From an uncultured Acidobacteriota bacterium (GTDB taxonomy: Bacteria; Acidobacteriota; Vicinamibacteria; Vicinamibacterales; CAVVIG01), in NCBI GenBank assembly GCA_963748265.1, contig CAVVIG010000009.1, positions 332,661 to 396,660 of the forward strand: a DNA stretch of 64,000 nt, in the 5' to 3' direction. A program made the position numbers and the translations under genes. Positions 5,981-31,571 of the stretch are shown here, one piece after another (the first letter of the stretch is position 1; every line of letters begins with the position of its first letter). The notes under the pieces are model-generated. The model made no database searches. It had not been told where the DNA came from and saw nothing but the letters and a program-made list of their open reading frames with translations.

Positions 5981-6010
5981 TTGCCAGTCGAAAGCGGGCT
6001 CTGTTAAGAT
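5981..6010 (+). promoter_or_regulatory. Candidate sigma-70-type promoter (TTGCCA-N18-TAAGAT)
   Basis: TTGCCA at 5981-5986 and TAAGAT at 6005-6010 sit in the argH/zinc-ribbon-gene spacer, about 60 nt upstream of the 6069/6072 start. This is pattern match only. Confidence 0.3.
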
Positions 6011-6068
6011 TCCGTAACGCCTTTCGCAATACCTTCCCCCGCCCGACGAGGATCCTTCGGGAGTTCTG

Positions 6069-6890: not shown

Positions 6891-6896
6891 ACTCAT

Positions 6897-8781
<1,885 letters not shown>

Positions 8782-8785: not shown

Positions 8786-10205
8786 GCGGCGACTCGGTGA
8801 TGCATAGCGCAGCGACCGTCGACGTTTACTCGGCTGAGACCCGACTCGAGGTGCGGACTAGGCGCGTTAACGGTCCGCCGTGGCTCGAGGCCGTACTCGC
8901 GCGATCTTCCGGTAGAGCGTGCCGCGGCTGATGTCGAGCACCCGGGCGGCTTCCTTCTTGTTCCAGCTGCACCGCCTCGAGCACGCGCATGATGTGCGCG
9001 CGTTCCGCTTCGGCAGCGACGGCAGCCGGTCGCCCGTGGCGGTGCGCGCCGGCGGCGCGAGGCGTGCAGGAACTCGATGTCGCTGGCGCGGATGACCGGC
9101 CCGGCGCCGACAGCGCGGCGCGCGACACGGTGCTTTCGAGCTCGCGGATGTTGCCGGGCCAGGGATACGTCAGCAGCTGGTCGAGGCGTCGCGCGCGAAC
9201 GCTCTTGGCGTCGAGCGGCAGGCCGTGGGCCGCGCAGTAGCGCGCGAGGAAGCGCTGCGCCAGCACCGGGATGTCGACCTGGCGCTCCCGCAGCGACGGC
9301 AGCCGGATCGCGAACGCGTTGACGCGGTAGTACAGGTCCTCGCGGAAGCGGCCGTCGCGCACGAACTGATCGAGCGGCCGGTTCGTCGCCGAGATCAGCC
9401 GGAAGTCGACCGAGATCGATCTGTTTCCGCCCAGCCGCTCGAACCGCCGCTCCTCGAGCACGCGCAGCAGCTTGGCCTGCGCGATGAGCGACATGTCGCC
9501 GATCTCGTCGAGGAACAGCGTGCCGTCGTTGGCGAGTTCGAGGCGGCCCGGCTTGCGGTCGTGCGCGCCGGTGAAGGCGCCCTTCTCGTAGCCGAAGATC
9601 TCGGACTCGAACAGCGTGTCGGGCAGCGCCGCGCAGTTGACTGCCTGGAACTTCGCCCTTTTCGCGCCGGCTCAACTCGTGGATCATCCGCGCGACGACT
9701 TCCTTGCCCGATCCGGTCGGGCCGAGGATCAGCACCGAGATGTCGGACTTGGCCGCCGTGCGGATCCACTCGAAGACGATCAGCATCTTCTCGTCGCGGC
9801 CGATCATCTCGCGGAAACGCTGGACGGACGGCGACTGATCCTCGCGTGCTGACCATGGCGCGCCGTTCGAGGAAGTTGTCGAGCAGCGCGCGGTCGCCTC
9901 GTCGGCCGGACGCGATGCGCTGTATTGCGGCGGGAGACCGGCCTCTGCGGTGCTGCGAATCAGGCCGAAGTCCACCAGCTCGCGCAGGCAGTTGTCGACG
10001 TCGAGGCGCAGGCGGCCGAACGCCTGCATCAGGGCCTCGACGTCGAACGCGTCGTCGGGGCGCGCGTTCAGGTAGCGGAGCAGGCCCGCACGCAGGGGCG
10101 ACTGCACGAGCGCGTGAAACCGCGCATCGGGGTCGCCCGGTCCCGTGGGGTGCCGCCGCCGCGCTGCCGCCGGCGCGCCGACGCGCGGAGCTGCGACTCG
10201 TCCAT
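8782..10205 (-). CDS. Sigma-54-dependent transcriptional activator (bacterial enhancer-binding protein, AAA+), non-receiver N-terminus; reading frame broken at least 4 times
   Basis: [20 protein letters not shown] (Walker A); [29 protein letters not shown] (GAFTGA loop, in the third frame); [49 protein letters not shown]...[25 protein letters not shown]...[12 protein letters not shown]; C-terminal HTH ...[27 protein letters not shown]. The N-terminal limit is uncertain (10107 or the ATG at 10205). Confidence 0.75.
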
Positions 10206-15644: not shown

Positions 15645-16298
15645 GTGAGTCTTCCCGCCCTCATCGTCTTCGATCTCGACGGTACCCTCGTCGACTCGCT
15701 CCGCGACCTGGCGGAGTCGGCCAACGAGCTGCTCACCGCGTGCGGCTGCGCCCCGCATCCGGAAGCGGCCATTGGACGAATGGTGGGCGAGGGGGCGGCC
15801 ACGCTCGTGGCTCGTGCCTTTGCGGCGGCCGGCGCCGTGCCGCCTCCCGACGCCCTCGAGCACTTCCTCGCCATCTACGACGCTCGACCGCTCCGCCATA
15901 CGCGCCCCTATGCCGGCGTCCCGGAACTGCTGACGAAGCTCGCTGACGCTTCGACGCTGGCTGTGCTCACGAACAAGCCACTGGCCGCCACGCGCGCGAT
16001 CCTCGTCGGCCTCGAGCTCCTGCCGTATTTTGGCGCGCGGGTCATTGGCGGCGACGGCCCGCTCCCGCGGAAGCCGGACCCGGCAGGGCTGCTTTCCCTT
16101 ATCGAGGCGCGGACGACGCCGGCCGATACGGTGATGGTGGGCGACTCGCCGGTGGATCTGCGGACGGCCCGGGCGGCAGGCGCGAAGGGCTGCGTGGCGC
16201 GGTATGGCTTTGGGGCCGCGGCGTTTACCAATGACGAGCTTGAAAAATCCGATTACGTGATTAGCAAACCCCTTGAGCTTCTGTCGGCTCTACTGTAG
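15645..16298 (+). CDS. HAD-superfamily phosphoglycolate phosphatase-like hydrolase
   Basis: LIVFDLDGTLVDS (motif I), VLTNKP (motif II), KPDPAGLL and VMVGDSPVDLRTARAAG (motifs III/IV). Confidence 0.8.
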   Translation: MSLPALIVFDLDGTLVDSLRDLAESANELLTACGCAPHPEAAIGRMVGEGAATLVARAFAAAGAVPPPDALEHFLAIYDARPLRHTRPYAGVPELLTKLADASTLAVLTNKPLAATRAILVGLELLPYFGARVIGGDGPLPRKPDPAGLLSLIEARTTPADTVMVGDSPVDLRTARAAGAKGCVARYGFGAAAFTNDELEKSDYVISKPLELLSALL

Positions 16299-16383
16299 GG
16301 TTACGCTGCGCTCGAGGTGGTCATCTGTTCAGCTGTACTGCAAGTCTGAAAATCAAGGTGAGCAATAGTACGTAAAATCGGTT

Positions 16384-16399
16384 TGGCATTTGGGTTGCT
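16384..16399 (+). promoter_or_regulatory. Sigma-54 (-24/-12) promoter upstream of the gas-vesicle cluster
   Basis: TGGCATTTGGGTTGCT compared with the consensus TGGCAC-N5-TTGCW: GG and GC are exactly 12 nt apart. It sits in an AT-rich spacer, 49-70 nt upstream of the first gvp start (16448/16469). Confidence 0.6.
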
Positions 16400-16447
16400 G
16401 AGATAAGAACATCCCGACGTGACTGTGCCGCTCGTGGCCGTGGCGGG

Positions 16448-16801
16448 GTGTCACGACTTACCGAAACTATGCCGACGTCACTCTCCGACGGGCACGGGCG
16501 TTCCACCGGTCTCGTCGACGTCCTCGACCGTGTGCTCGACAAGGGGCTGGTCGTGGCTGGCGACATCAAGGTGTCGCTCGCCGAAGTCGAGCTCCTCACG
16601 ATACGGATCCGTCTGCTCATTTGCTCCATCGACAAGGCCGAGCAGATCGGTCTCGACTGGTGGAAGTTCGATCACCACCTCTCGCCAGGGAAGCAGGCGC
16701 TGTCGGCGGAGAACGAGGAGCTGCGACGTGAGATTCGCGTGCTCGAACGCAGGCTCGCCTCGATGTCGCGGCGGCGACCGCCAGCGGGAGCACTGAAGTG
16801 A
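16448..16801 (+). CDS. gvpJ: Gas vesicle protein, GvpA/J family (GvpJ-like)
   Basis: [52 protein letters not shown] matches a GvpJ-type core, with a coiled-coil-like tail. An alternative start is ATG 16469. Confidence 0.85.
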   Translation: MSRLTETMPTSLSDGHGRSTGLVDVLDRVLDKGLVVAGDIKVSLAEVELLTIRIRLLICSIDKAEQIGLDWWKFDHHLSPGKQALSAENEELRREIRVLERRLASMSRRRPPAGALK

Positions 16802-16843
16802 TCGGGGCGGCCGTCGTGCGCCGGCATTCCCAGGGAGAAGCTG

Positions 16844-17179
16844 ATGCCCGTTGAACGCGCTGCCGGCGGCACGAGCCTGATCGACGTGCTCGATCGCGTC
16901 CTGGACAAGGGGATCGTGATCGATGCGTGGGTCCGGGTGTCGCTGGTCGGCATCGACCTGATCACCGTCGAGGCGCGCGTGGTCGTCGCCTCGATTGACA
17001 CATATCTCAAGTACTCCGAAGCGGTGGGTCAGGCCGCGCCTGTGAGCCGGCCGGCGATTGAATCCAAGCCGTATGAGGAACTCATTGCCGAGAATGCCGC
17101 ACTCAGGGCTCAGCTCCAGAGCAGCGTCAATGCCCGCAAGGCTGTTGTCGGACGCCGCCGCGCCCCCGCGCGCAGCTGA
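16844..17179 (+). CDS. gvpA: Gas vesicle structural protein GvpA
   Basis: [51 protein letters not shown] is near-canonical GvpA core sequence. Confidence 0.9.
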
Positions 17180-17198
17180 GCGAGCTGACCGAAACGGC

Positions 17199-19340
17199 GT
17201 GTCCGCTCACGCGCGTGCGGCCGCGTCCCGCGACGACCGCCTCGCCGCGCGGCTCCGGCTGCTCGAGGGCTTTCTCAGCCGCATCGAGCCGGCTGACTGT
17301 GCCTACTACGCGCTGCAATGGCTCGCCCAGACCCTCGGCATCTCGCGATCGCTCTGCCTGATTCGCCCCGCGCACGAACAGACGCTCATCGCCATCGCCT
17401 GGCACGGCTTCTCCTCCACGATCGCGACGGAGTTCTCCGTCAGCCTCGACGACTGGGGCAGCCCGCTGGTGCAGCTGCTCCACACGCATCGGCACGTGCG
17501 ATTTCCAGCCGCGCACACGTCGACCGAACGCCGCCGCCGTCCGGGGACCCCGTTCGAAGACACGGCGTTTCACGCGGTGCCGCTCGGTGGCGCGGGCTAC
17601 GCCAACGAGGCGTTCGGCCTGCTGCTCACCGGCAGCGCGCAGAGCACCGACGACCTCGCGTGGTTCAGCGCGGTCCTCGGGCAGAAGCTCGATCAGATCC
17701 TGCGGCAGAAGGAGCTCGCCGACGGCGACCATCGCCACGGCCGTGAGCGCTCCCTCCTCTACAGCATCATCAACGCCGTCTCCGACCCGATCCTGCTGAC
17801 CGACACCGAGGGCCGCCTGCTCATCGCCAATGCCCGCGCGCTGTCGCTCTTCACGTCGTCGGAGGAGGAGAGCGAGGGGCGACGCGGCGCGGTGCGGATG
17901 AACAACATGCTGCTGTCGTCGGGGCTCTCGAGCAAGGCGCTCGAGGAGTCGGGCGCGGCGCGGCGGGAGCTGGTGCTCGTGAACCCGGTGGACGGCTCCG
18001 ACCTGGTGTTCGAGCTCCTGAGCACGGCGACTGAAGATCCGCGCCACGGCACCGGCATCGTGTCGATCCTGCGCAACGTGACCGACCTGCGTCGCGCCGG
18101 CGAGGAGATCGAGGACAACTACCGCCGGCTGCGCATCGCCGAGGCGCAGGCGCGCACCGAGGGCGATCGGCTGAACCTGATCATCGACTCGGTGGCCGAT
18201 CCGATCGTCGTCACCGACTCGGGGGGCGCGACGTCGCTGATGAACGAGCCGGCGGAGCGGCTGTTCACGATCAAGGCCGCGGCAGGACCCTCGGAGCAGC
18301 GCGCCGTGCAGGCCAACGACGCGCACTTCTCGTCGTTCATCGCCGGCATGCTCCTCAGCCCGGATCAGCGTCGTGTCGGCGACATCGCCCTCACCGATCC
18401 AGGCAGCGGGAGCCCGATGCCGGTCGAGGCGATTGCCGGCAAGGTGCTGTCGCCGCGGGGCGAGCTGACGGCGGTCGTCACAATCCTGCACGATCGCCGC
18501 GAGGCGCTCGAGAAAGCCCGCCTCTTCGAGCAGCTGAAGGAAGCGTCCGACGAACTGGAACGAAAGATCCAGGCGGCTACCGCCGATATCGCGCAACAGA
18601 ACGAGCTGCTGCGCCGCCAGGCGATCGCGCTCGAACAGGCGTCGATGCTCAAGTCGCAGTTCCTCGCGAACATGTCGCACGAGTTCCGCACCCCGCTGAA
18701 CGCGATCCTCGGCTACACCTCGATGCTGCTGCAGGGGGTGAGCGGGCCGATCGAGGGTCCGGCGCGGCGTCAGCTCGGACGGATCGAATCCAACGGCCGC
18801 CACCTGCTCACGATCATCAACGAGATCCTCGACATCTCCAGGATCGAGGCGGGCCGGATGCCGCTGCAGGTCTCGCGCGTCAACCTGCGCGAGCTGCTGA
18901 ACGAAGTCCGGGCGGAGCTCGAGCCGATCATCCTGCGCTCGAAGCTGGAGGTGACGCTCGTCGTCGCGCGCGACCTCCCGCCCATGTCGACCGATCGGCA
19001 GAAGGTGAAGCAGATCCTCCTCAATCTGCTGAGCAACGCGCTGAAGTTCACACATGAGGGGTCGGTGAGGATCACCGCCCGCCGGCGTCCCAACGAACGT
19101 GCTTTCGAGCTCCAGGTCGCGGACACCGGCATCGGCATTGGCGCGGCCGACCAGGAGCGCATCTTCGAAGACTTCCGCCAGCTCGATAACACGCCGACGC
19201 GTCCGTACGGCGGCACGGGCCTGGGGCTGTCCATCTGCCGCCGACTCGCCAAGATGCTGGGCGGATCGATCAGGGTGCACAGTCAGGCAGGCGCCGGGTC
19301 CACGTTCACGTTGACACTTCCATCACAGGGCAGGAGATGA
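17199..19340 (+). CDS. Soluble sensor histidine kinase (GAF-like N-domain, two PAS-like domains, HisKA, HATPase_c)
   Basis: Intact ORF (track 17058-19340). The likely start is GVSAH at GTG 17199, or ATG 17130 overlapping gvpA. H-box: FLANMSHEFRTPLNAILGY. N/G boxes: LLNLLSNALKFT, DTGIGI, GGTGLGLSICRRLAKMLGG. No hydrophobic transmembrane stretch was seen. Confidence 0.85.
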   Translation: MSAHARAAASRDDRLAARLRLLEGFLSRIEPADCAYYALQWLAQTLGISRSLCLIRPAHEQTLIAIAWHGFSSTIATEFSVSLDDWGSPLVQLLHTHRHVRFPAAHTSTERRRRPGTPFEDTAFHAVPLGGAGYANEAFGLLLTGSAQSTDDLAWFSAVLGQKLDQILRQKELADGDHRHGRERSLLYSIINAVSDPILLTDTEGRLLIANARALSLFTSSEEESEGRRGAVRMNNMLLSSGLSSKALEESGAARRELVLVNPVDGSDLVFELLSTATEDPRHGTGIVSILRNVTDLRRAGEEIEDNYRRLRIAEAQARTEGDRLNLIIDSVADPIVVTDSGGATSLMNEPAERLFTIKAAAGPSEQRAVQANDAHFSSFIAGMLLSPDQRRVGDIALTDPGSGSPMPVEAIAGKVLSPRGELTAVVTILHDRREALEKARLFEQLKEASDELERKIQAATADIAQQNELLRRQAIALEQASMLKSQFLANMSHEFRTPLNAILGYTSMLLQGVSGPIEGPARRQLGRIESNGRHLLTIINEILDISRIEAGRMPLQVSRVNLRELLNEVRAELEPIILRSKLEVTLVVARDLPPMSTDRQKVKQILLNLLSNALKFTHEGSVRITARRRPNERAFELQVADTGIGIGAADQERIFEDFRQLDNTPTRPYGGTGLGLSICRRLAKMLGGSIRVHSQAGAGSTFTLTLPSQGRR

Positions 19341-19774
19341 CAAGAATCAAAACCGATCGGCCGAAGGTGCTTCTGGTCGACGACTACCCGGATGCCCGCG
19401 AGATGTACAGCGAGTACCTCCAGTTTTCGGGCTTCGAGGTCGTGGAGGCCGCCAACGGCATCGAGGCCCTGCAGCGGGCGGTCGACACCGCCCCAGACAT
19501 CATCCTGATGGATTTGTCGCTGCCGGTCATGGACGGCTGGGAGGCGACCCGTCGTCTCAAGGCGGACGGACGGACCGCGGACATCCCCGTGGTCGCCCTC
19601 ACCGGGCACGCGTTGGCGGGCATTTCGGAGGGCGCCCGCCAGGCGGGCTGCGACGCCTTCGTCACCAAACCGTGCCTGCCCGAGGATCTGGTACGCGAAA
19701 TTCGCAAGGTCCTCGACGACATCGCCTCGCGCGGACCGCGCCGGAGTGGCGGGTATGCGAAAACCATCGGCTAG
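19337..19774 (+). CDS. Receiver-only response regulator (CheY-like)
   Basis: KVLLVDDYPDAREMY...DIILMDLSLPVMDGWEATRRLK...PVVALTGHA...CDAFVTKP. At 145 aa there is no output domain. The ATG overlaps the kinase stop (ATGA). Confidence 0.9.
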   Translation: MTRIKTDRPKVLLVDDYPDAREMYSEYLQFSGFEVVEAANGIEALQRAVDTAPDIILMDLSLPVMDGWEATRRLKADGRTADIPVVALTGHALAGISEGARQAGCDAFVTKPCLPEDLVREIRKVLDDIASRGPRRSGGYAKTIG

Positions 19775-20758
19775 CGCACGCCCCTCCGGGCGCGGCGCTC
19801 CCCGAGTCCCCAGGGCGGCGTCGCGCGCGAGGGCGCCGCCGGAAAGTCGGCACGTGCGAAGTCCGCGAAGGCGGCACCGAAGGGCAATGGCAAGGCGGTA
19901 AGTCTCAAGAGCACCCGCGGCCCGAAGAGGCCGGCCGCGACGCCCGAGCGCCCGAAGCTCCGGCCCGCGGCGCCCGCCGCAACCTCCGCCGAGAGCGAGA
20001 CGGGACTGACCAGCCGCGGGAAGTACGTCTACTGCATCATCGAGGCGGGCGAGCCGCTGCGGTTCGGCCCGATCGGCATCGGCGCCCAGCCGAGCGACGT
20101 GCACACGGTGCACTTCAGGAACCTGGCGGCGGTCGTCTCCGACGCACCGCTCGAAGTGCTCGACTCGACGCGCGAGAACGTGCTGGCGCACGAACGCGTC
20201 AACGAGACGGTGATGCGCGAGCACACCGTCATCCCGATGTCGTTCGGCACGATTTTCAAGACGCGCGACGACATCGTGGAACTGCTCCGGTCGGCGGCCG
20301 AGGCGTTCAACGACGTCCTGAACAAGATGCGCAACAAGCTCGAATTCGGGCTGAAGGTGCTCTGGGATCGGGACCAGGCGATCCGCGAGGTGGAGGGCGA
20401 AGACGACGACATCGGGCGCCTGAAGCAGGAGATCTCGGTGCAGAAGGGGCCGACCTATTTCGCGCGCATGCAGTACGGCCGTCTGGTCGACGCGGCGCTG
20501 CAGGCCCGTTCGGAGCGCTACATGCCGGCGATCCTGGACGAGCTGCGCGACGTGTCGGTCGCCTCCCGCATCAACAAGCCGATCGGCGACAAGATGATCA
20601 TGAACGCCGCGTTCCTGATCTCGCGCGACCGCGAGGGCGCCTTCGACCAGAAGGTGAAGCTCATCGCCGGCCGCTTCGACCGGCTCACGTTCAAGTACAC
20701 CGGGCCGTGGCCTCCCTATAATTTCGTGAACATACGCCTGAAGCTCGAACGGGCCTGA
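19755..20758 (+). CDS. gvpF: Gas vesicle protein GvpF/GvpL family, with Lys/Ala/Pro-rich N-terminal extension; probable frameshift near the 5' end
   Basis: GKYVYCIIEAGEPLRFGPIGIGAQPSDVHTVHFRNLAAVVSDAPLEVLDSTRENVLAHERVNETVMREHTVIPMSFGTIF...FKYTGPWPPYNFV. No in-frame start lies between the response-regulator stop and KYVYC, so ATG 19755 plus one frameshift is inferred. Confidence 0.75.
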
Positions 20759-20765
20759 TCGCCTG

Positions 20766-21011
20766 ATGTTCATCCTCGATTCGCTGCTGATCGGCTCCCT
20801 GCGCTTCGTGCTCGACGAAGCTGCTAGCCGCCGCCGAAGCGAGGCGCCGACGACACGGCGCTCCGCGAGCAGCTCCTCGAGGCCCAGATGCGTCTCGAAA
20901 TCGGCGAGCTCGAATCACGAACGAGGTATACCAGGCGGTCGAGCGCGAGGTGCTCGCGCGCATCCGCCTGCTGAGGGGCGTCGTGAGGGTGAGCCGGTCA
21001 CGCTGACCTAG
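20766..21011 (+). CDS. gvpG: Gas vesicle protein GvpG; frameshifted
   Basis: MFILDSLLIGSLRFVLD..., then in shifted frames ALREQLLEAQMRLEIGELE and ITNEVYQAVEREVLARIRLLRG. This is the typical GvpG layout. Confidence 0.7.
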   Translation: MFILDSLLIGSLRFVLDEAASRRRSEAPTTRRSASSSSRPRCVSKSASSNHERGIPGGRARGARAHPPAEGRREGEPVTLT

Positions 21012-21077
21012 CCTGGCGTCGAAGGGGCGGGACGTCGAGGCCACGACGATTGGGAGCGAACTCGACGACGTGATCGA

Positions 21078-21880
21078 ATGAGCAGGCCGCCTACGTCCAC
21101 CGCCCGATCACCTCCGCAACGTCCGTCTGCAGCGCCCTCGCCGGCGCGGCCTGCCTGCTGTCCCGCGCGCGCTGAAGGGATCGCCCCTGCCGATCGAGTC
21201 GTCCGACTGCGTCGCGGCGGAAGAGCCGGCTCAAAAGTGGCTCGCCGTGGCCGATGCGCCGCTCGCGCGACTACGGCGAGGCCGCCGCTACGGGAAGGCC
21301 TGAACGACCTCGACTGGGTGTCCCGTGCGTGCCCTGGCGCACGAGGCGCGTCGTGGAGTCGATGATAGCGCCGCCGCCGTGCTGCCGATGAAGCTCTTCA
21401 CGATCTTCACGAGCGACGAGCGCGCGGTCGGCCACATGGAGCACGCCTGGGGCGTATCGACGCCATCCTCGAGCGTGTCGCGCGGCCGCCAAGAGTGGGG
21501 CGTCCGTGTGGTCATCACCCCCGGACCGGGACCAACCACCCGGGCGGCCGAACGCCGCGTCGCCTCGGGTTCAGGCTACCTCGCAGCCAAGAAGGCAGCG
21601 CGAACGGAACGAACTGAGCGGGCGGCACGCGCCGAGCGCGTCGTGGCCTCGCTCTACGACCGGCTCGCGAAGCTGGGTGACGCGGCGCACGAGGCGTTCG
21701 GCGGTCGAGGAACTGGTCGATGGTGGACCGCTCCTGCTCGACGCGGCGTTTCTCGTGCCGCGTCAGCGGCGCTCGCGCTTCAGGGCCGCGCTCAGGCGCG
21801 AGGCCGAGCGGCTCCAGGAACAGGGGTATGGTCTGACGGTGAGCGGCCCCTGGCCGCCGTACAGTTTCGTCGAGAGATGA
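21078..21880 (+). CDS. gvpL: Second GvpF/GvpL-family gas vesicle protein; heavily frameshifted
   Basis: Pieces: AAYVH.., LAVADAPLA, GLNDLDWVSR, AVLPMKLFTIFTSDERAVGHMEHAWG, EWGVRVV, ELVDGGPLLLDAAFLVPRQRRSRFRAALRREAERLQEQGYGLTVSGPWPPYSFVER*. Confidence 0.7.
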
Positions 21881-21887
21881 CCGGGAG

Positions 21888-22202
21888 ATGAGATCCCGGT
21901 CCCGCGTGGAGCGACCGTCACGGCCGCCCTCTTCGCCGGTGGAAGCCGATCGCGTGCTCGGTGTCGAGGGGGCGACGGTCGTGGACATCCTCGACCGTCT
22001 CCTGAGCAAGGGCGTGATGGCGACCGGGGACATCACCCTCGGCGTCGCTGGAGTCGACTTGGTCTACCTCGTTTGTCGGCACTCTCTGTCCGCCGTCGAC
22101 AAGGTCTTGGACCGGCAGAGCACACGGCCGCCGGTCGGACGGCGGCGTCAGGCGAGCGCCGGACCGCGTCGAGTCCCCGGGCGCCGGGGCGAGAGCCGAT
22201 GA
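21888..22202 (+). CDS. Third GvpA/J-family gas vesicle protein (GvpJ/M/S-like)
   Basis: TVVDILDRLLSKGVMATGDITLGVAGVDLVYL...SAVDKV. The 3' end is uncertain; an alternative frame continues toward gvpK. Confidence 0.7.
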   Translation: MRSRSRVERPSRPPSSPVEADRVLGVEGATVVDILDRLLSKGVMATGDITLGVAGVDLVYLVCRHSLSAVDKVLDRQSTRPPVGRRRQASAGPRRVPGRRGESR

Positions 22203-22296
22203 GCCCGAGTCGTCGGAAACGGTCGCCCCGATCGCGCCTCTCACACGGAAAGCGGAAGAGGGCGCCTCAACGAAGGAAGCGCGCTTCGGCCGCCCC

Positions 22297-22668
22297 GTGT
22301 CGCCGACGCGCGACGAACTTCGTGCGCTCACGCGTGCTCAAACGCGCTGGCCGTCACCGCGCGGCGCCCCGCCGAACGAAGCCTCGACGGTCTGCCGGCT
22401 CAACGGCGCGTCGCGCTGGAATCCGGATCCCGAGGATGTGCAGCGGTCGGTCGCTCAACTCGTGCTCACGCTCGTCGAATTCCTGCGCGAGCTCATGGAG
22501 CGCCAGGCGATCAGGCGGATGGAGCAGAAGACGCTGACACCCGAAGGAGGTGGAGGCCGTCGGCCTGCGCTGATGCGTCTGGAGGAAACGATCCGTGACA
22601 TCGGCCGTCGGTTCGGTCTGACGCCAGAAGATCTGAATCTCGACCTGGGGCCGATCAAGCTGGTGTAG
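22297..22668 (+). CDS. gvpK: Gas vesicle protein GvpK
   Basis: NPDPEDVQRSVAQLVLTLVEFLRELMERQAIRRMEQKTLTPE..LMRLEETIRDIGRRFGLTPEDLNLDLGPIKLV. A local compensated frameshift is inferred (PEGGGGRRPA where EEVEAVGLA is expected). Confidence 0.75.
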   Translation: MSPTRDELRALTRAQTRWPSPRGAPPNEASTVCRLNGASRWNPDPEDVQRSVAQLVLTLVEFLRELMERQAIRRMEQKTLTPEGGGGRRPALMRLEETIRDIGRRFGLTPEDLNLDLGPIKLV

Positions 22669-23347
22669 TCAGGCTCGTGGCTTCGACCAGCAGCTTCGAC
22701 GCGGCGCGCGTGCCGATGGTGATGCGCTGTCGATTGCGCCCCCGGAGCCTGCACGGAGTCGGCGGCGGTATCGCGCAGCTCGACTTCGACCGGTTGTCCC
22801 GGCTTGAGATCGTTGCATCTCGATGAAGCGGAGGAAGGCCGGGTCCTGATCGGTGATGCGCGTGACCCTCAGCGGCGTGCCGAGCGGGCAGGTCAGCAGG
22901 CTGTCGAGATGGCGCGGCGTGATGCGCCCTCGGCGGTCGGGATCGGATCGCCGTGCGGATCGTGCGGTCGGGCGGCCGAGCATCTCGTCGATGCGCTCGA
23001 TGAGCCGCTCGGAGACGACGTGCTCGAGCTGCTCGGCTTCGTCGTGCACCTCGGCCCAGCTCATGCCCATCACCTGCACGAGGAACGAGCTCGACCAGGC
23101 GATGACGCCGCAGCACCAGCCCGGCGAGCTTTTCGCCGGCGGCGTCAGCCGGACGCCGCTGTACGGCTCGTATTCGGCCAGCCCCGATTCGGCCAGCGCC
23201 TTCACCATCGTCGTCGCGGTGCCGGGCGTGACGCCGAGAGCCGCTCGCGACCTGTCCCATCGGCACGAGCCGCGCGTCGCGCCGGCAGCGCGACTGGCCC
23301 TGGTAGATGGCCTTGAGGTAGTTCTCGACCGTGCTCGACGGGAGCAT
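22655..23347 (-). CDS. DtxR/IdeR/MntR-family metal-dependent repressor with C-terminal SH3-like/FeoA domain; reading frame broken at least 3 times
   Basis: STVENYLKAIYQ.. / VTPGTATTMVKALAESGLAEYEPYSGVRLTP / AGEKLAGLVLRRHRLVE / FLVQVMGMSWAEVHDEAEQLEHVVSERLIERIDEMLG / CPLGTPLRVTRITDQDPAFLRFIE. The 3' end overlaps the gvpK 3' end by 14 nt (convergent). Confidence 0.75.
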   Translation of the reverse strand: MLPSSTVENYLKAIYQGQSRCRRDARLVPMGQVASGSRRHARHRDDDGEGAGRIGAGRIRAVQRRPADAAGEKLAGLVLRRHRLVELVPRAGDGHELGRGARRSRAARARRLRAAHRAHRRDARPPDRTIRTAIRSRPPRAHHAAPSRQPADLPARHAAEGHAHHRSGPGLPPLHRDATISSRDNRSKSSCAIPPPTPCRLRGRNRQRITIGTRAASKLLVEATSLTTPA

Positions 23348-24647: not shown

Positions 24648-26334
24648 ATGAGCCTCGTTCCGTCCCTCCTCCAGGCCATCATCGGATCGACGGCGAGGCG
24701 CTGGTCCTGCACGTCGGCGAGAAGCCGCATGTCGTCGCGGAAAGCGGTCAGGTGAACCTCGCGACACGGGGCTGACCTCGAAGCGCTGACCGACGTGATT
24801 CGCGAGCTGCTCCGCCAGACGCGCAGCGCGCCCTGGACGACGTGGGCGCGGCGCAGTACGTGCTGCCCGAGAATCCGCAGTTCCCGAGCGAGCACTTCAC
24901 CGTCGTCGCGGCCCGTGGCGGCGACGACATCTGGGCGGAGATCCGCCGCAAGCCGCAGCGACTCCGCTGGCCGCACCGGCCGCCGATGCGGATCGTGAGC
25001 CGCCGGCCCCGTTCGCGCTTCCCGACACGGTGACGCCGCTCGAGGGGCGTCCGTCGCGCACGCTGCCGATGGACACACTGCCGACGGTGCGGACCGAGCC
25101 GCGCCGCAGCCGTCGTCATCGAGCCGCTGCGAACAGCCGTCCGCGGGGTTGCGACGACGATCCGCCGCCGGCAGTCGTCCTGCCGCTCGCGCGCACGCCG
25201 CTCCGCCACGACGTGCCACCGCCGCTGGCCGAACCGGCTCTGTCGGGGCTCGACCGGCTGCTCCGTCTGGCGGCGGCCCGCGGCGCGTCGACGCTCTATC
25301 TGTCGTCGGGTGCGCGGCCGTCAATTCGCGTGGACGGCGACGTGCGAGACGCTCGACGGCGCGCCTGTGCTCGGCCCGAACGACGTCGAATCGCTGCTGC
25401 TGACGCTGATGCCGGAACGGAACGCCGAGGCGCTGCGCACGGGGGTCCGCGAGCGAGTGGATTTGCGAAGTCCCCGAGGTCGGACGCGTGCGCTGCATGA
25501 GCTTCCGCGACCACCGCGGGCCGGGCGGCGTGTTCCGGATGATGCCGCTGCGCGCGGTCACGGCCGAGCAGCTCGGGCTGTCGCGGGAAATCCAGGCGCT
25601 CGCATCGAGACCGACGGCCTCGTGCTCGTCGCCGGCCCGCGCTCGAGCGGCAAGCGCACGCTCATGTCGGCGTTCGTCGATCTCATCAACCGCACGCGGC
25701 GCGATCACGTCATCACGATCGAGCGTGAAATCAACGTCGTCCACGAGCGCATCGGGTCGTTCATCAGCCAGCGCGAGGTCCGCGGCGACCGAGCTGATGG
25801 CTGGCGGTGGCGCGCGCGGCGCTGCGCGAGGATCCCGACGTCCTGGTCATCGAAGAACTGCGGACGGCCGGGCTGGTGATCTGGCGCTCGACGCCGCGGC
25901 GCGCGGGCAGCTGGTGATCGGCGGCTTCCGGCGCACAGCGCCAGCAACGCGATCGATCGGATCATCGATCTCTATCCGCCCGAGGAGCGCCGGCAGGTGC
26001 AGCTGTCGCTGGCGCAGAGTCTTCGCGGCGTCGTGGCGCAGGTGTCTGCTGCGGAAGAGCGGAGGCGGCCGGGTCGCGGCGCGCGAGGTGCTGCTCAACA
26101 CGCCCGCCGTTGCCAGCGTTCCTCGCCGAGGGCAAGACCTCGCAGCTCCCGCTGCGATCGAAGGGGGACGCCAGCACGGCATGGTGCCGCTCAACGACGC
26201 GCTGGTCGGCTTCGTGCAGAGCGGCGCCGTCGAAGTGCGCGAGGCGCTACCGCTGTGCGCCCGATCGTGCCGGGTTCCTCGCGCTGCTCAAGCGGCAGGG
26301 TCTCGACATTTCGCGCCTCGAGCGGCTCGCCTAG
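24648..26334 (+). CDS. pilT: PilT-family (type IV pilus retraction/twitching) hexameric ATPase with extra N-terminal PilT-N-like domain and Pro-rich linker; reading frame broken at least 8 times
   Basis: The extra N-terminal module is MSLVPSLLQAII.IDGEALVLHVGEKPHVVAESGQVNLATRGL...AAQYVLPENPQFPSEHFTVVAARGGDDIWAEIRR. The canonical part is ASTLYLSSGARPSIRVDG, RCMSFRDHRGPGGVFRMMP, LVLVAGPRSSGKRTLMSAFVDLINRTRRDHVITIEREINVVHE (Walker A), REDPDVLVIEEL (Walker B), AIDRIIDLYPPEERRQVQLSLAQSLRGVVAQ, GRVAAREVLLNTPAV, GMVPLNDALVGFVQSGAVEVREA...LERLA*. Confidence 0.7.
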
Positions 26335-26394: not shown

Positions 26395-26788
26395 TCACAG
26401 GAAATCCAGCAGCTGCTCCTCGGTCAGATCCGCGACCGGCTGTTCCGCCATCGCACGTTCGTTCTCCACGACGCGCCGGCCGCGCGCGCGGCTGCTGCCC
26501 GAGCGACCAGCGGCTCGTCGCCGGACGTGTCGAGCGAGAGCTCGATGTAGTCCTCCGCGTTGCGCTCCGACATCAGCCGCACGCTCCCGCCCGGCGTGAA
26601 CACGGTGAACTGATAACCCTCCGCCTTCAGCACGTTCGCCACCTGGCGGAACAGCGGCACGGCTGTCGTCTCGAGAAACGCGCGTACTCGCGCGTCGCCT
26701 CGTCGGTGCGCGTCCGGCGCTCGGCCGCGGTGCGCTTTGCCCGCTCGATGGTCTCGACCAGTCGCTGTCTCACTACCGAGATTTCCAT
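26395..26788 (-). CDS. Hypothetical protein (about 130 aa; frameshifted)
   Basis: MEISVVRQRLVETIERAKRTAAERRTRTDEATREYARF / VPLFRQVANVLKAEGYQFTVFTPGGSVRLMSERNAEDYIELSLDTSGDEPLV / ERAMAEQPVADLTEEQLLDFL*. Its ATG abuts the CoA-transferase stop (TGATG). Confidence 0.4.
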
Positions 26789-27963
26789 CAGATCACGCCT
26801 TCGTGTCCGAAGGGCGGCGACCTGTGCGCCCGCATCCCGAGATCGCCGGTCAGCACCGCTTCGGTGTGCTGGCCGAGCGTCGGCGGCGGCGTGCGGATCG
26901 ACGCCGGCGTGTCCGACAGTTTCAGCGGCGTGCCCAGCACCCGCAGCGCTCCGGCGGCTGTGTTCGAGCTCGGCCATCATCTCGCGGGCCGCCATCTGCG
27001 GGTCGGCGAACAGTTCGTGCAGATCGCGCACCGAACCGCACGGTACCCTGCGGCCTGTCAGCCGCTCGATCCAGTGCGCGCGTGGCGGTCGCGAGCCGCG
27101 CGTCGAGGGCGGGCTTGAGCTCGGCGTAGCCGCGTCACGCGGTGCCGGTTGGTCGCGAACCGCTCGTCGGCGCGATGCCGGCCGCGCCGCAGAACCGCCG
27201 CCACTGCTCGTCGTTGCCGACCGCGATGACGAAGTCGCCGTCCGAGGCCGGGAACGTCTCGTAGGGCACGATGGTCGGATGGCGGTTGCCCAGACGCGGC
27301 GGCGCGGCGCCGGTCGCGAAATAGATGCCCGCCTGATAGGTCAGCAGCGCCGACGACCGAATCGAGCATCGCGATGTCCACTGCCTGGCCCCGCCCGGTC
27401 CGTTCGCGCGCGAAGAGCGCCGCCGTGATGCCCTGTGCGGCGAACATGCCGGAGACGATGTCGGCGATGGCGACGCCGAGGCGAAACGGCGGGCCGTCGG
27501 CGCTGCCCGTGATGCTCATCAGGCCGCCTTCGGCCTGCATCACCGCGTCGTAGCCGGGTTCCTTGCGGCGCGGCCCCGTCTGGCCGAACCCGGAGATCGA
27601 GCAGTAGACGAGCCGCGGGTGTGTTCGGCGAGCGACGCGTAGTCCAGGCCGAGCTTCGCGAGCGTCCCGGGCCTGAAGTTCTCGACGATCACGTCGGCGC
27701 GCTGCGATGAGCCGATCGAGGACGGCGCGCCCCTCGGGCTCCTTGAAGTCGAGCGTCACGCTTTCCTTGTTGCGGTTGATGCTCAGGAAGTACGCGCTCT
27801 CGCCCTGCCGAAACGGCGGGCCCCACGCGCGCGTGTCGTCGCCCTTGCCCGGCTGTTCGACTTTGATCACGCGCGCGCCCATGTCGGCGAGCATCATGGT
27901 GCAATACGGCCCCGACAGCACACGGGTGAGGTCGAGAACCGTGATACCGTGCAGTGGAGTCAT
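26789..27963 (-). CDS. Family III CoA-transferase (CaiB/BaiF family); reading frame broken at least 4 times
   Basis: MTPLHGITVLDLTRVLSGPYCTMMLADMGARVIKVEQPGKGDDTRAWGPPF...ESAYFLSINRNKESVTLDFK / LVYCSISGFGQTGPRRKEPGYDAVMQAEGGLMSITG..GPPFRLGVAIADIVSGMFAAQGITAAL / C-terminal LHELFADPQMAAREMM... Confidence 0.75.
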
Positions 27964-27984
27964 AGAAAGTGCGACTAGTATGAC

Positions 27985-28060
27985 ATCAGGGATCAGGGAT
28001 CGGCGGATCAAGGATCGGGATCGGCGATTAGATATTGCGACTCGAGCGATTAGCGATTAG
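27985..28060. repeat. Intergenic short tandem repeats: (GGGATCA/GGATCGG)n followed by (GCGATTA)3
   Basis: Directly visible: ATCAGGGATCAGGGATCGGCGGATCAAGGATCGGGATCGGCGATTAGATATTGCGACTCGAGCGATTAGCGATTAG. Positions 27985-28003 are the exact reverse complement of 54698-54716. Confidence 0.8.
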
Positions 28061-28066
28061 AGGCTT

Positions 28067-28790
28067 ATGCATCGACTGTCGGCGATGATCCTTGGCTGGA
28101 GTCTGGCGTGCGCGTCCCCGCGCTTGCCCAGGACCCCGCCGCTGTCCCTCCGGTGCCGACGATCGTCACGACCGGAGAGGCGATCATCCGGCGCGCGCCC
28201 GATCAGGCGTTCGTGACGGTCGCCGTCGAGACCCGCGCGAAGAACGCCGCGGGAGGCCCAGCAGCAGAACGCCGAAGCCATGACGGCCGTGCAGCAGCGC
28301 GTCGCCGCCGCCGGCCTTCCGCAAGGACGCCGTCCGGACCACCGGCTACACCATCCAGCAGGAGTTCGACTTTGCGAATGGCCGACGCGATGCCGCGCGG
28401 ATACCTGGCGCGGAACGGCCTCGAGAGTGCGCGTCGACGACGTCGAACGCACCGGCGACGTGCTCGACGCGCTGGTCAGGCGGGCGCCACGATCTATCAC
28501 CGGCGTGCGTTTCGATCTGAAGGATCGAGCGGCCGCCGAACGCGAGGCGCTGCGCCTCGCGGTGGCCGACGCGCGCGGCCGCGCCGAGGCCATCGCGGCC
28601 GGTGCCGGCCGCACGGTCGACCGGGTGCTCCGGATCGAAGATTCGCCGCAGTCCGACGCTGCCGCCGATGCTGGCCGACGATCGCCATGCTGCAGCGATG
28701 CGGCCGCTGCGGCGCCGGACGACGCCGATCGAGCCGGGGCACGATCGAGATTCGCGCGCAGGTCGACGCTCGACGGTCTCGATCAAGTGA
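28067..28790 (+). CDS. SIMPL-domain (DUF541, 26-kDa periplasmic immunogenic protein-like) secreted protein; reading frame broken at least 5 times
   Basis: MHRLSAMILGWSLA.. (signal-like) / VPTIVTTGEAIIRRAPDQAFVTVAVETRAKN / MTAVQQRVAAAGLP / VRVDDVERTGDVLDALV / ITGVRFDLKDRAAAEREALRLAVADARGRAEAIAAGAGRTVDRVLRIED / TPIEPG..IEIRAQV...VSIK*. Confidence 0.65.
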
Positions 28791-28821
28791 CCGGACACGA
28801 ACACCTCGTCTAGATGCTGCG

Positions 28822-29472
28822 ATGCCGCCCGCCTCACTGACCGCCGAGGACTACGCCCGCGCGCGCCGCGTGCTGATGCGCCGCGATCCGGTGCTCGGCG
28901 CGCGATCAAGGAGATCGGCCCGTGCCTGATGGCGGAGCGCCAGCAGCCCGATCACCTCACCGCGCTCGTCGGCTCGATCGTCAGCCAGCAGCTCTCGACC
29001 AAGGCGGCCGCGACCATCTTCGGCCGCTTCAGGGCACTCTTTCCCGACGGCACGCTGGTCACGGCTGCAGGCATCGCCGCGCTGGACGACTCGACGCTGC
29101 GCGGCGTCGGCCTGAGCGGCCAGAAGGTCGCGCTACATGCGCGATCTCTGCGGCGCGGATCGCTCGACGGGCGGCTGCGGCTCGAAGAGCTCGATGCGTT
29201 GTCGGACGAGGAGGTGATCGAGCGGCTGACCGCGGTGAAGGGGTTCGGCCGATGGACCGCGGAGATGTTCCTGATGTTCCGCCTGCATCGCCCCGACGTC
29301 CTGCCGGTGGCCGACCTTGGCATCGTGAACGCCGTGCAGCGGCTGTATCGGCTGCGCAAGCGGCCCGACGCGAAGAAGCTGCTACAAGATGGGCGAGGCG
29401 TGGCGGCCTTACCGATCGGTGGCGTGCTGGTATCTGTGGCAGTCGCTCCGGTTCGAAGACCCCATCACCTGA
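28822..29472 (+). CDS. DNA-3-methyladenine glycosylase II-like HhH-GPD base-excision enzyme; 2 frameshifts
   Basis: LTALVGSIVSQQLSTKAAATIFGRF...LRGVGLSGQKV...VKGFGRWTAEMFLMFRLHRPDVLPVADLGI, with the C-terminus MGEAWRPYRSVACWYLWQSL in a shifted frame. Confidence 0.7.
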
Positions 29473-30138
29473 TCGCGCAGGTCAGAACAGGGAAGCCGGA
29501 GCCACCCGCGCTTTCACGCAAGAGGGCGAAGCCGGCGACGATCGCGATGAGCGTGCCGCGCTCGCTGAAGAGCGTCTCGCCCACGAGAAGGCCGCTGCGT
29601 GCTCCGAGGCGCCCGCTGACGGGCGCCGCCGAACCGCGGGATCCATCGCGGCACGCGGCGCATGTAGTCGCGGTACGCGCTCGCCGATCCGCGACTCGAG
29701 CAGCCGCTCCTCCCATCGGACGATCGAGTGGTACTCGACCGCGAGGAGGCCGGCGACGAACGGCGCGAGCCAGAGGAGCTGCGCGCTCACCGCGAACCCG
29801 AGCCACAGCAGGATGTTGCCGAGGTAGAGCGGATTGCGCACCAGCCCGAAGGGTCCGCTGTCCACGAGCGGTCCCAGGCGATCGCTGCGCGTGCGCGAAA
29901 TCACGCCAATGTGGTGGACGCCCCAGACGCGCAGCAACTCACCGGCGGCGACGATTGCAGCGCCCAGCGCGGGCAGCCCGGCCGACGCCGTGCCGCCAGG
30001 CGACGGGACCAGCAACAACGCGGCGGCCAAGGGGAGCGGGAGCGAGGTCCGATGCGTGAACAGCCAGCCGCCGACGCGCGTGACGAAGTCCGGATCCTGC
30101 TGTATCGATTGAGGTTCGCTCGTCGTGGACAGGGGCAC
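29465..30138 (-). CDS. Isoprenylcysteine carboxyl methyltransferase / phospholipid methyltransferase-family membrane protein; frameshift near 29650, 3' end uncertain
   Basis: GPFGLVRNPLYLGNILLWLGFAV...HSIVRWEERLLESRIGE, then AYRDYMRRVPRWIP in a shifted frame. The sequence is multi-transmembrane and hydrophobic. Confidence 0.6.
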
Positions 30139-30234
30139 TCGCTCGTTGAGTATAGCGCAACGACCGGGTTTGTTATAATTCGGACTACTGCGGTCGCATA
30201 TCGCTCATGTCCTCCTCTCTCCACGCCCTCCACG

Positions 30235-31152
30235 GTGACTGATCGCGCCGTTTCGTCGGTTCTCGACCTGATCGGCCGCACGCCGCTCGTTCGGCTCGGC
30301 GCTTCGAGCAGGAGACGCCCGGCGTCGAGCTGTACGCCAAGGCCGAGTGGCAAAACCCCGGCGGGTCGGTGAAGGATCGCGCCGCGGCGCGGATGATCGC
30401 TCGACGGGGAGCGTCAGGAGCGCCTGCGCCCGGGCTCGACGATCGTCGACGCGACCTCCGGGCAACACCGGCATCGCCTACGCGATGATCGGCGCGGCGA
30501 AGGGCTACAAGGTCAAGCTGTTCCTGCCCGAGAACGCCAGCCCGGAACGGAAGCTGATTCTGCGCGCGTTCGGCGCCGAGCTCGTGCTGACCAGCCCGCT
30601 CGAAGGTACCGACGGCGCGATCCGGGAGGTACGCGAGCTCGTCGCGCGAGCACCCGGACGAGTACTTCTACCCGGATCAGTACAGCAACGACGCGAACTG
30701 GCGCGCGCACTTCGACGGCACGGGACCCGAGATCATCGAGCAGACCGGCGGGCGCGTGACGCACTTCGTCGCCGGCCTGGGAACGAGCGGCACGTTCATG
30801 GGCACCGGCCGGGCGCTGCGGCAATTCAATCCGGCGATCAAGGTCGATGTCGTTTCAGCCGGACTCGCCGTTCCACGGGCTCGAAGGGCTGAAGCACATG
30901 GAGACGGCGATGGTGCCGGCGCATCTACGATGCGGCGCTCGCCGACGAGGACCTGCGCGTCGGCACCGAGGAGGCGCACCGGCTGGTGCGGCGGCTGGCG
31001 CGCGAAGAAGGGCTGCTCGTCGGGCATCTCGTCCGGCGCGGCGCTCGCGGCGACGCTTGCAGGTCGCACGCACGCTGGACTCGCGGCGTGCGTCGTCACG
31101 GTGTTTCCCGACGGCGCGGAGAAGTACCTGACCGAGTCGTTCTGGACCGCCG
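30235..31152 (+). CDS. cysM: Cysteine synthase B-type PLP enzyme (CysM; CysO-thiocarboxylate-dependent by context); reading frame broken at least 5 times, 3' boundary unresolved
   Basis: VTDRAVSSVLDLIGRTPLVRL / ELYAKAEWQNPGGSVKDRAAARMI / [51 protein letters not shown] / YFYPDQYSNDANWRAHFDGTGPEIIEQTGGRVTHFVAGLGTSGTFMGTGRAL / FQPDSPFHGLEGLKHM / EGLLVGISSGAA / VFPDGAEKYLTE. The current sequence reads through into mec with no stop. Confidence 0.75.
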
Positions 31153-31571
31153 ATGACGATGGCCACACTCGCGCCTGCGTGCTCGAAGCCGGCGTGGCGG
31201 CGGCGATCCGCCGGCACGGCGAGGAGACGTATCCGCACGAGTGCTGCGGCGCGCTGGTCGGACGCGGCGGACACGTCGACGCCGCGGTGGCGCTGCCGAA
31301 CACGACCGAGGAAGGACCGCGGCGGCGGTTCCTGGTGCGGCCGTCGGACTACCGGCTGGCGGAGCAGCGGGCGACGCGAGCTCGGGAGGCGAGCTGCTCG
31401 GGTTCTATCACTCGCATCCCGACCATCCGGCGCGGCCGTCGCAGTTCGACCTCGACCACGCGTGGCCGACCTTCGCGTACGTGATCGTCGCGGTCATGGC
31501 TGGCGCGGCGCGCGCCATGACCGTCTGGTATCTGAAGGAAGACCGATCCAGTTTCGATGAGGGCGAGCTGA
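31153..31571 (+). CDS. mec: JAMM/MPN+ metalloprotease (Mec-type CysO-cysteine peptidase); frameshifted
   Basis: VLEAGVAAAIRRHGEETYPHECCGALVG...RRRFLVRPSDY, then GELLGFYHSHPDHPARPSQFDLD, which is the JAMM H-x-H-x7-S-x2-D motif. The TGA at 31569 abuts the cysO ATG (TGAATG). Confidence 0.7.

Follow-up and report, generated by a model that had tools for sequence, protein, structure and literature searches.

In Serratia sp. ATCC 39006, the gvpA1 operon of gas-vesicle (gvp) genes is transcribed from a sigma-54 promoter and requires the NtrC-like protein GvrA together with GvrB and GvrC (PMC4982088), and among Proteobacteria gvrB and gvrC lie in one operon with gvpF2/F3 (PMC4982088). A plasmid of Methylosinus sp. 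C49 (locus L164 of this study) carries, in this order, genes for a sigma-54 regulator, GvpF, a PAS kinase, a 150-residue receiver, GvpA and GvpN. The Streptomyces cluster reads gvpO-A-F-G-J-L-S-K, and the acidobacterial cluster listed by Castillo and Saier in 2010 combines ArsA with two L/F genes, J, K and M (PMC2963123). GvpN has been counted among the genes conserved in all gvp clusters (PMC9501494). Here we report the analysis of a gvp cluster from an uncultured bacterium of the Vicinamibacterales (Acidobacteriota), in which genes for a histidine kinase and a receiver-only response regulator are inserted between gvpA and gvpF. The cluster occupies 16.3-22.7 kb of a 64-kb stretch of contig CAVVIG010000009.1, hereafter the window, which had previously been annotated from its letters alone. 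That annotation, the original prediction, held that known gvp regulators sit in separate units, which is inaccurate both for the gvrB/gvrC pair (PMC4982088) and for the Methylosinus pair, which lies between gvpF and gvpA.

The locus is a genuine, lineage-typical gas-vesicle operon of soil Vicinamibacterales. Its nine genes, all on the plus strand and tightly packed in a window of about 69% G+C, form a single operon behind one sigma-54 promoter, because their ends overlap or abut and their order is constant in every related locus examined. We hold it probable, on balance, that the locus as a whole is best explained as a Vicinamibacterales gvp operon with a sigma-54 promoter and its own sensor pair, whose apparent insertions and deletions (indels) are noise. 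The loci used for comparison include L001 (GCA_046331345.1), L167 and L168, all from Vicinamibacterales metagenome-assembled genomes (MAGs), and the distant loci L002-L006, of which L003 belongs to Rokubacteria and L006 to Pyxidicoccus. The nine genes are as follows.

16469 to 16801, plus strand: gvpJ, a minor protein of the GvpA family (PF00741, E = 1e-16; WW motif and coiled-coil C-terminus).
16844 to 17179, plus strand: gvpA, the major wall protein (PF00741, E = 1e-16, 61 bits against a cut-off of 25).
17130 to 19340, plus strand: histidine kinase of the domain order GAF-PAS-PAS-HisKA-HATPase_c (Pfam; GAF fold predicted).
19337 to 19774, plus strand: receiver-only response regulator of 145 residues (PF00072 only).
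19755 to 20758, plus strand: gvpF (PF06386, E = 1e-66, the GvpL_GvpF domain lying in the open reading frame 20099-20758).
20766 to 21081, plus strand: gvpG, with three apparent indel errors (placed by frame-aware alignment to the L001 GvpG).
21078 to 21880, plus strand: gvpL or second gvpF, with about eight apparent indel errors (PF06386, E = 1.4e-32 when frame-corrected).
21888 to 22202, plus strand: third GvpA-family gene, gvpS/gvpM-like (PF00741; two compensating indels garble five residues).
22199 to 22668, plus strand: gvpK, in which about four frame corrections are needed (PF05121, E = 2e-25 raw and 1.6e-28 corrected).

Families were assigned by running Pfam on the open reading frames, by applying NCBIfam models at their curated cut-offs and by searching the window with Streptomyces Gvp queries. 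Streptomyces GvpJ, GvpA, GvpF, GvpS and GvpK each matched the corresponding reading frame, GvpJ with an E value of 4e-28 and GvpS, at 21888-22202, with one of 1e-8; the L001 orthologue of GvpJ is 90% identical to that of the window, and the L001 orthologue of the third GvpA-family protein matches the GvpM model. The 111-residue gvpA product, which bears a C-terminal extension of about 40 residues, scores 112 bits with NF006874 against a curated GvpA cut-off of 100 and is 68% identical to Methylosinus GvpA. GvpK reaches 89-99 bits with PF05121 against a cut-off of 25, the raw match lying in the open reading frame 22297-22668. In uncorrected sequence the GvpL_GvpF match of the second gvpF is split over two out-of-frame pieces (21325-21891 and 21506-21880), and gvpG has no Pfam match. 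Frame-corrected gvpG matches PF05120 at E = 1e-5, with 26 bits against a gathering score of 30.6; the intact orthologues in L001, L167 and L168 match this family, and the window GvpG is 58% identical to that of L001. The gene order and family calls of the original prediction were thus confirmed by Pfam and NCBIfam, gvpG only on frame-corrected sequence and below the gathering score, with changes of boundary. Thus gvpJ starts at ATG 16469 and not at 16448, its exact 110-residue product being present in the public protein collection, and gvpF at ATG 19755 and not at 20099. The 110-residue GvpJ, the 111-residue GvpA, the 736-residue kinase and the 145-residue receiver all have exact matches there, on one contig.

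The structural gene set is actinomycete-like, without GvpN and GvpC, and has a canonical gvpA core. Like the Streptomyces cluster, that of the window shows no gvpN or gvpC, follows the order F-G-...-L-S-K, belongs to a high-GC soil host and encodes a GvpJ with a WW motif and coiled-coil C-terminus as well as a GvpA with a C-terminal extension. It differs from the Streptomyces cluster in having no gvpO, in the placement of gvpJ before gvpA, in the kinase and receiver genes inserted between gvpA and gvpF, in the long basic tail of its GvpF and in its sigma-54 promoter; most relatives, though not the window, add ArsA. The description of a compact gvp locus of a high-GC lineage, with no GvpN, GvpC or GvpO detected, fits, the lineage being soil Vicinamibacterales.

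The start and stop codons of the kinase and receiver genes, of gvpG and gvpL, and of gvpS and gvpK overlap as ATGA, and gene ends also overlap or abut at gvpA/kinase and receiver/gvpF. A scan of 15.5-23.5 kb for sigma-70-like promoters and intrinsic terminators found none. These overlaps, together with the constant order in relatives, uphold the proposal that the kinase and the receiver are co-transcribed members of the gvp operon. Ratios of nonsynonymous to synonymous substitution rates of 0.12 for gvpJ, 0.18 for gvpA, 0.23 for the kinase and 0.14 for the receiver point to purifying selection on the genes read cleanly in the window.

The gvpA-kinase-receiver-gvpF arrangement, taken at first to be unusual, turned out in the synteny comparison to be the norm among hundreds of soil contigs and to occur in three phyla or more. 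In the protein collection the kinase has one 100% identical match of 736 residues, and over 100 orthologue clusters align with it along almost its entire length at 73-79% identity, those that are named being Vicinamibacterales MAGs. When metagenomes were scanned with the sensor half of this kinase, at least 401 relatives were confirmed, and 80 of these loci were analysed. All 80 of these soil-metagenome loci show the identical order as far as each contig reaches: gvpJ adjoins gvpA in 69, gvpA the kinase gene in 75, the kinase gene the receiver gene in 64 and the receiver gene gvpF in 55, followed by gvpF-gvpG in 45, gvpG-gvpL in 21, gvpL-gvpS in 18 and gvpS-gvpK in 17, with no alternative neighbours inside the cluster among the 80 loci. 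Soil and rhizosphere are the habitats of these relatives. In L001 all genes are intact; those for the activator described below, a bPH protein, deoxyhypusine synthase, DUF5615, an amidohydrolase, DUF4097, QueC, PTPS and HAD precede gvpJ, gvpA, kinase, receiver, gvpF, gvpG, gvpL, gvpS and gvpK, after which come an iron repressor, UbiE and T2SSE, and L167 and L168 agree with this order.

More distant full-length orthologues of the kinase (51-59% identity), all encoded between gvpA and gvpF, were found in at least five genomes: two Vicinamibacterales MAGs, an Acidobacteria MAG, a Rokubacteria MAG and the cultured myxobacterium Pyxidicoccus caerfyrddinensis CA032A. They come from a scan of a genome collection with the whole kinase which was swamped by generic kinase motifs and which samples taxonomic breadth rather than providing a survey. 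At the Pyxidicoccus locus (L006, 9727-13499) gvpA, kinase, receiver and gvpF stand alone, with no gvpG, gvpJ or gvpK nearby; genes for a metallo-beta-lactamase-fold protein and a 1959-residue AAA_16 protein follow this core. The locus offers a possible experimental entry point, or may be a reduced module with a different role. In the Rokubacteria locus L003 (13441-14901 and 3726-5306), an extra kinase-like open reading frame separates gvpF from gvpG, gvpK is preceded by a third GvpF-like gene, and a sigma-54 activator of the receiver type is encoded 4 kb upstream. The literature searched, whose coverage is incomplete, held no description of gas vesicles in Vicinamibacterales or of a kinase-receiver pair between gvpA and gvpF. 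Components and regulatory logic are both familiar; what is new is their combination, the lineage and the prevalence, and the arrangement appears to be undescribed.

Such breadth bears on whether the pair is a passenger, a two-component system that rides in the operon and controls an unrelated process. At curated (equivalog) NCBIfam cut-offs neither the kinase nor the receiver reaches a named family, and no direct target is identifiable, as would be expected of a passenger. The position between gvpA and gvpF has nevertheless been kept across Acidobacteriota, Rokubacteria and Myxococcota despite gain and loss of ArsA, an extra GvpF and different promoter types, and the start/stop overlaps on both sides favour co-expression with the gvp genes, so that we regard a passenger role as very improbable.

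Several gvp genes of the window are interrupted by frame changes, and the original prediction had allowed for pseudogenisation. We aligned the intact L001 proteins to the window with a frameshift-aware aligner, which may over-call in stretches of low identity. No frame change was found between 12,309 and 19,750, and about 80 fell in 8.0-12.1 kb and 20.8-26.4 kb, approximately one per 100-130 bp; that they come in blocks is beyond ambiguity. Five gvp genes are hit, where four had been counted: the tail of gvpF, gvpG, gvpL/F2, the gvpS/M-like gene and gvpK. The genes for an NAD-binding reductase, the sigma-54 activator, deoxyhypusine synthase, DUF5615, the iron-dependent repressor, a UbiE methyltransferase and a T2SSE ATPase are equally affected. 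Further noise blocks probably lie at about 3500-8000 and 26400-31500, and the T2SSE/PilB-like secretion ATPase gene (24650-26330) is broken by about 12 indels. Since sharply bounded blocks strike flanking housekeeping genes at the same density, the frameshifts are best read as assembly indel errors rather than decay, and the gvp genes as intact.

Decay of the cluster, with gvpG to gvpK truly frameshifted and non-functional, would account for the multiple breaks seen in gvpG, gvpL, gvpK and the gvpF tail as the window is given. It sits poorly with six frame-corrected proteins that have no internal stops and keep their conserved motifs. Corrected identities to L001 (deoxyhypusine synthase 89%, iron repressor 82%, activator 81%, T2SSE ATPase 58%) are akin to those of clean genes, and the corrected GvpG, GvpL, GvpS and GvpK, at 58, 45, 57 and 63%, are no more diverged from L001 than are their intact L086 orthologues, at 68, 47, 72 and 55%. 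Orthologues are intact in Illumina-style contigs, with three split matches among the 80 loci. Moreover, in a related assembly with 'contig_N' naming, the ArsA gene is broken into three open reading frames, which suggests the same type of error in long-read metagenome assembly. As to whether the indels sit in homopolymers, the noisy blocks are only slightly depleted in runs of four bases or longer, and the frame-switch positions given by the aligner are imprecise. On these grounds, decay of the gvp genes is scarcely credible. For users of long-read metagenomes, block-wise indel noise can mimic pseudogenisation, and reading the open reading frames of this window requires frame-aware translation.

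The public call of the kinase starts at ATG 17130 (736 residues), GTG 17199 being an alternative start. Pfam recognizes two PAS domains, HisKA and HATPase_c, and is silent on the N-terminus; the H-box FLANMSHEFRTPLN is present. The N-terminal 150 residues were modelled by AlphaFold with a predicted local distance difference test (pLDDT) score of 90 and matched GAF domains in Foldseek at E values of about 1e-8, and are thus predicted to adopt a GAF fold. Pfam and PDB sequence searches on the N-domains of the kinase and the activator gave nothing beyond one marginal match in the PAS region. No transmembrane segment was found in the kinase, the highest 19-residue Kyte-Doolittle mean being 1.09. 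In the receiver, PF00072 spans residues 11-122 of 145 with no output domain, and the phosphorylation residues D15/D16, D59, T89 and K111 are all kept. Its closest solved relative is DivK (E = 5e-22). With the single-domain regulators DivK and CheY it shares a receiver standing alone with all phospho-acceptor residues, and it differs from them in being encoded in a gas-vesicle operon and not among cell-cycle or chemotaxis genes. What had been read from the letters, a kinase with GAF-like and PAS-like domains, an H-box and no transmembrane segment, overlapping by ATGA a receiver without output domain, was accordingly sustained by Pfam, structure modelling and hydropathy.

The unusual Lys/Ala/Pro-rich extension noticed earlier on GvpF likewise proved real, as a basic tail conserved in clusters with the kinase-receiver pair. 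It comprises about 85 N-terminal residues with an isoelectric point of 12, rich in Ala, Arg, Lys, Pro and Ser. The gvpF ATG at 19755 overlaps the 3' end of the receiver gene by 20 nt, and the resulting N-terminus, MRKPSASARPS, resembles that of about 45 relatives, in which the overlap is 7-22 nt and the N-terminus is, for example, MRKPxxSAR; public gvpF calls (L167 and L168) give 327-344 residues with a start 20 nt before the receiver stop. In the window ATG 19755 is in a different frame from the GvpF domain, and the tail must therefore contain at least one indel, located near 19.79-19.85 kb. N-terminal basic tails of 60-100 residues occur in all kinase-receiver clusters examined, the distant ones included, and not in the two GvpF N-termini of a small comparator set, those of Streptomyces and Methylosinus.

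Upstream of gvpJ and at some distance from the cluster lie the following candidate control elements.

16384 to 16399, plus strand: sigma-54 (-24/-12) promoter, TGGCAT-N5-TTGCT, TGGCATTTGGGTTGCT (motif match, 70 nt before the gvpJ ATG).
16294 to 16310, plus strand: distal upstream dyad TGTAGGGTTACGCTGCG, a candidate enhancer-binding site conserved in relatives.
16326 to 16342, plus strand: proximal upstream dyad TGTTCAGCTGTACTGCA, a second candidate enhancer-binding site conserved in relatives.
8868 to 10179, minus strand: sigma-54 enhancer-binding protein with winged helix, AAA+ and HTH_8 domains, riddled with indels (81% identical to L001 when frame-corrected; Pfam domains from L001).

On both strands of the 64 kb, the sequence at 16384-16399 is the sole exact match to TGGCAY-N5-TTGCW. 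Of the 61 relatives with enough flank, 60 have the motif at a distance of 77-99 nt upstream of gvpJ, and L001 has it as well; TGG and TTGCT are invariant and the spacer sequence varies. In 51 of 58 distinct relatives the distal dyad, TGTA-N9-TAC, precedes the -24 element by 88-91 nt (54 for TGT-N11-RCR). The window copy is one base off the consensus, and the dyad shares bases with the stop codon of the HAD hydrolase gene before it, so that its conservation is partly coding. The proximal dyad, TGT-N11-GCA, precedes the -24 element by 55-59 nt in 39 of the 58 (44 with RCR), and the two dyads are about 32 nt apart, or about three helical turns. In the 5' leader (16400-16468), GAGATAAGCC directly 3' of the -12 element is conserved in relatives, and relatives have GTAGAATA about 15 nt 5' of the gvpJ ATG, where the window has a degenerate form. 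An Rfam scan of 15.5-23.5 kb at E values up to 0.1 gave no match, the conserved leader motifs included. The distant loci L003-L005 are without the sigma-54 motif and have instead, by eye, a sigma-70-like TTGCCT-N17-TATAGT; no match to the sigma-54 motif was found at the Pyxidicoccus locus.

The activator gene occupies the same position in L001 (1781-3130, minus strand), L167 and L168. Its modelled N-domain (pLDDT 84) matches winged-helix repressors of the ArsR/SmtB type at about 2 Å over some 72 residues, and an assignment as response regulator was rejected, the N-domain being predicted as ArsR-like winged helix with no receiver. The domain combination looks unusual, with about 800 relatives in the protein collection, and a small open reading frame with a bPH_2 domain lies directly upstream on the same strand. 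This winged-helix/AAA+ protein is the best candidate activator of the gvp promoter, given its proximity, the conserved synteny and the lack of any other exact sigma-54 motif nearby. The original prediction had named it as a possible target of the receiver; the lone conserved sigma-54 motif before gvpJ lends that proposal circumstantial support.

In these features the locus resembles the GvrA/GvrB/GvrC systems, which likewise have a sigma-54 promoter before a gvpA-containing operon, genes for a PAS kinase and an overlapping receiver-only regulator of about 150 residues among the gvp genes, and a sigma-54 enhancer-binding protein encoded nearby. It differs from them in the extra GAF domain of its kinase and in a kinase-receiver pair that lies in the operon of gvpA, between gvpA and gvpF. 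Its activator is encoded 6 kb away, outside the cluster, and carries an ArsR-like winged helix in place of the receiver of NtrC-type activators, and the window shows no gvpN, gvpC, gvpV, gvpW, gvpH or gvpZ.

For the absent genes, four GvpN, two GvpO, one GvpC, one Hsp20 and one ArsA query were run against the window by tblastn and, against its six-frame translation, by profile hidden Markov model and phmmer searches. None gave anything significant in the 64 kb (best E values 0.02-0.2), with lower sensitivity in the noisy blocks. For GvpN, a four-sequence profile and tblastn gave best E values of 0.08-0.19; for GvpO they were 0.02-0.17, and gvpJ occupies the position of gvpO upstream of gvpA. 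The one GvpC query, from Nostoc, returned E values of at least 3, GvpC being too variable for one query to exclude. The statement that the 64 kb hold no gvpN, gvpC or gvpO therefore stands in that GvpN and GvpO were not found, and is reduced for GvpC to non-detection with a single query from a variable family. In 86 related loci, neither GvpN nor GvpO was found in the 8-10 kb that flank the kinase gene on each side; the negative for GvpN covers the window and these flanks and does not extend to the whole genome.

Of the 21 loci spanning the interval between gvpG and gvpL, 18 contain an extra 1.9-2.4 kb there. This insert encodes a tandem ArsA-type ATPase of about 675 residues in 37 relatives (for example L004 13911-15938, L082 7940-9928 and L168 13980-15847) and is missing from the window, at about 21080, and from L001, L086, L110 and L167, which make up the subclade of the window. 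Most relatives thus share an in-cluster tandem ArsA with ArsA-associated clusters, including that of a Nostoc plasmid (L166), and the window with its subclade does not. The acidobacterial cluster of Castillo and Saier differs in that only arsA and gvp genes are listed for it, with no mention of a kinase or receiver (PMC2963123). Where present, ArsA is the sole ATPase of the cluster; its natural presence/absence polymorphism between close relatives offers a comparison of what the ATPase contributes.

The gene content also raises the question of the product. Members of the subclade may make small vesicles or none, and the operon might serve, in water-limited soil, a role other than buoyancy, classical gas-filled vesicles being formed rarely or not at all. 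Consistent with such a role are the soil and rhizosphere habitat, the failure to detect GvpN, GvpC and GvpO in the window, the lack of any ATPase in the clusters of the subclade, and a gene set like that of the Streptomyces coelicolor type; conditions under which the latter forms vesicles had, up to 2016, not been identified (PMC4982088). Weighing the other way, the GvpA core is canonical, with 68% identity to a proteobacterial GvpA and a score above the NCBI cut-off, and all core assembly families are present and apparently under purifying selection. A review counts Streptomyces among the gas-vesicle-forming soil bacteria (PMC9501494). We think a role without classical vesicles unlikely.

How the operon might be controlled can be put together as follows. 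An enhancer-binding protein on the two upstream dyads, with the winged-helix/AAA+ protein encoded 6 kb upstream as best candidate, would switch on sigma-54 RNA polymerase at 16384-16399, and the operon would yield wall and assembly proteins along with its own cytoplasmic kinase and stand-alone receiver. With its GAF and PAS domains the kinase would sense a cue from inside the cell, and it would phosphorylate the receiver, which would have to act by protein contact because it has no output domain. By analogy with GvrB/GvrC at the Serratia gvpA1 promoter, we tentatively propose feedback on the sigma-54-dependent transcription of the operon itself as the target, a choice that we rate at somewhat less than even.

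The site of action might instead be vesicle assembly, with the phosphorylated, DivK-like receiver binding GvpF, perhaps at its basic tail, or GvpA, and thereby switching vesicle nucleation on or off. We treat this as a lesser possibility, almost as likely as transcriptional feedback. It draws on the receiver stop and gvpF start, which overlap or abut in every clade examined, in three phyla, and on a basic GvpF tail that is present in all kinase-receiver clusters and not in the Streptomyces and Methylosinus comparators. It agrees as well with the retention in Pyxidicoccus of gvpA, kinase, receiver and gvpF alone, with the persistence of the pair where the promoter looks sigma-70-like and with a nearby activator that has no receiver. 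DivK itself acts by protein contacts. Set against this, the evidence is of gene context throughout, the overlap may merely reflect operon compaction, the tail-less comparator set is small, and GvrB/GvrC, the sole experimentally studied kinase/receiver pair of a gvp cluster, acts on transcription (PMC4982088). A more specific and unlikely version would make the embedded pair a direct phospho-switch, the phospho-receiver on the disordered basic N-tail of GvpF licensing or blocking GvpA nucleation. If it were true, gvpA-kinase-receiver-gvpF would be a self-contained, signal-gated nanocompartment module with no dedicated ATPase in the subclade.

Several observations count against the favoured account of a sigma-54-driven vesicle operon with transcriptional feedback through its own sensor pair. 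With a winged-helix N-domain the activator is closed to the usual mode of phosphorylation by the kinase, and what ties it to the operon is conserved synteny. The loci L003-L005 keep the kinase-receiver pair in place with promoters that by eye are sigma-70-like, L004 and L005 having no nearby activator, and therefore whatever role of the pair is conserved probably does not depend on sigma-54. Orthology with GvrB/GvrC was rejected in comparison with the Methylosinus pair, the kinases being 22% identical (E = 8e-10) and the receivers giving no match at 1e-3. The subclade of the window has neither GvpN nor the ArsA of its relatives, and in the literature searched no gas vesicles were found reported for any Vicinamibacterales.

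The Vicinamibacterales are among the commoner soil Acidobacteria, and their cell biology is almost unknown. Because a conserved operon apparently under purifying selection recurs in hundreds of soil contigs, the data suggest that soil bacteria, and not plankton alone, regularly have gas vesicles or related protein shells. The sigma-54 promoter, two candidate enhancer sites, cytoplasmic GAF/PAS sensor and stand-alone receiver provide a handle on the timing of their production, and those who engineer gas vesicles as ultrasound reporters may find practical use in a cluster of nine genes that includes neither GvpN nor GvpC.

At the downstream boundary, an iron-dependent repressor gene (22682-23347, minus strand) follows gvpK directly in the window. 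In L001 (15469-17844), L110 (6368-8638) and L167 (15546-17924), all on the minus strand, a gene for a TonB-dependent receptor with a Plug domain, which the window does not have, lies between gvpK and the repressor gene.

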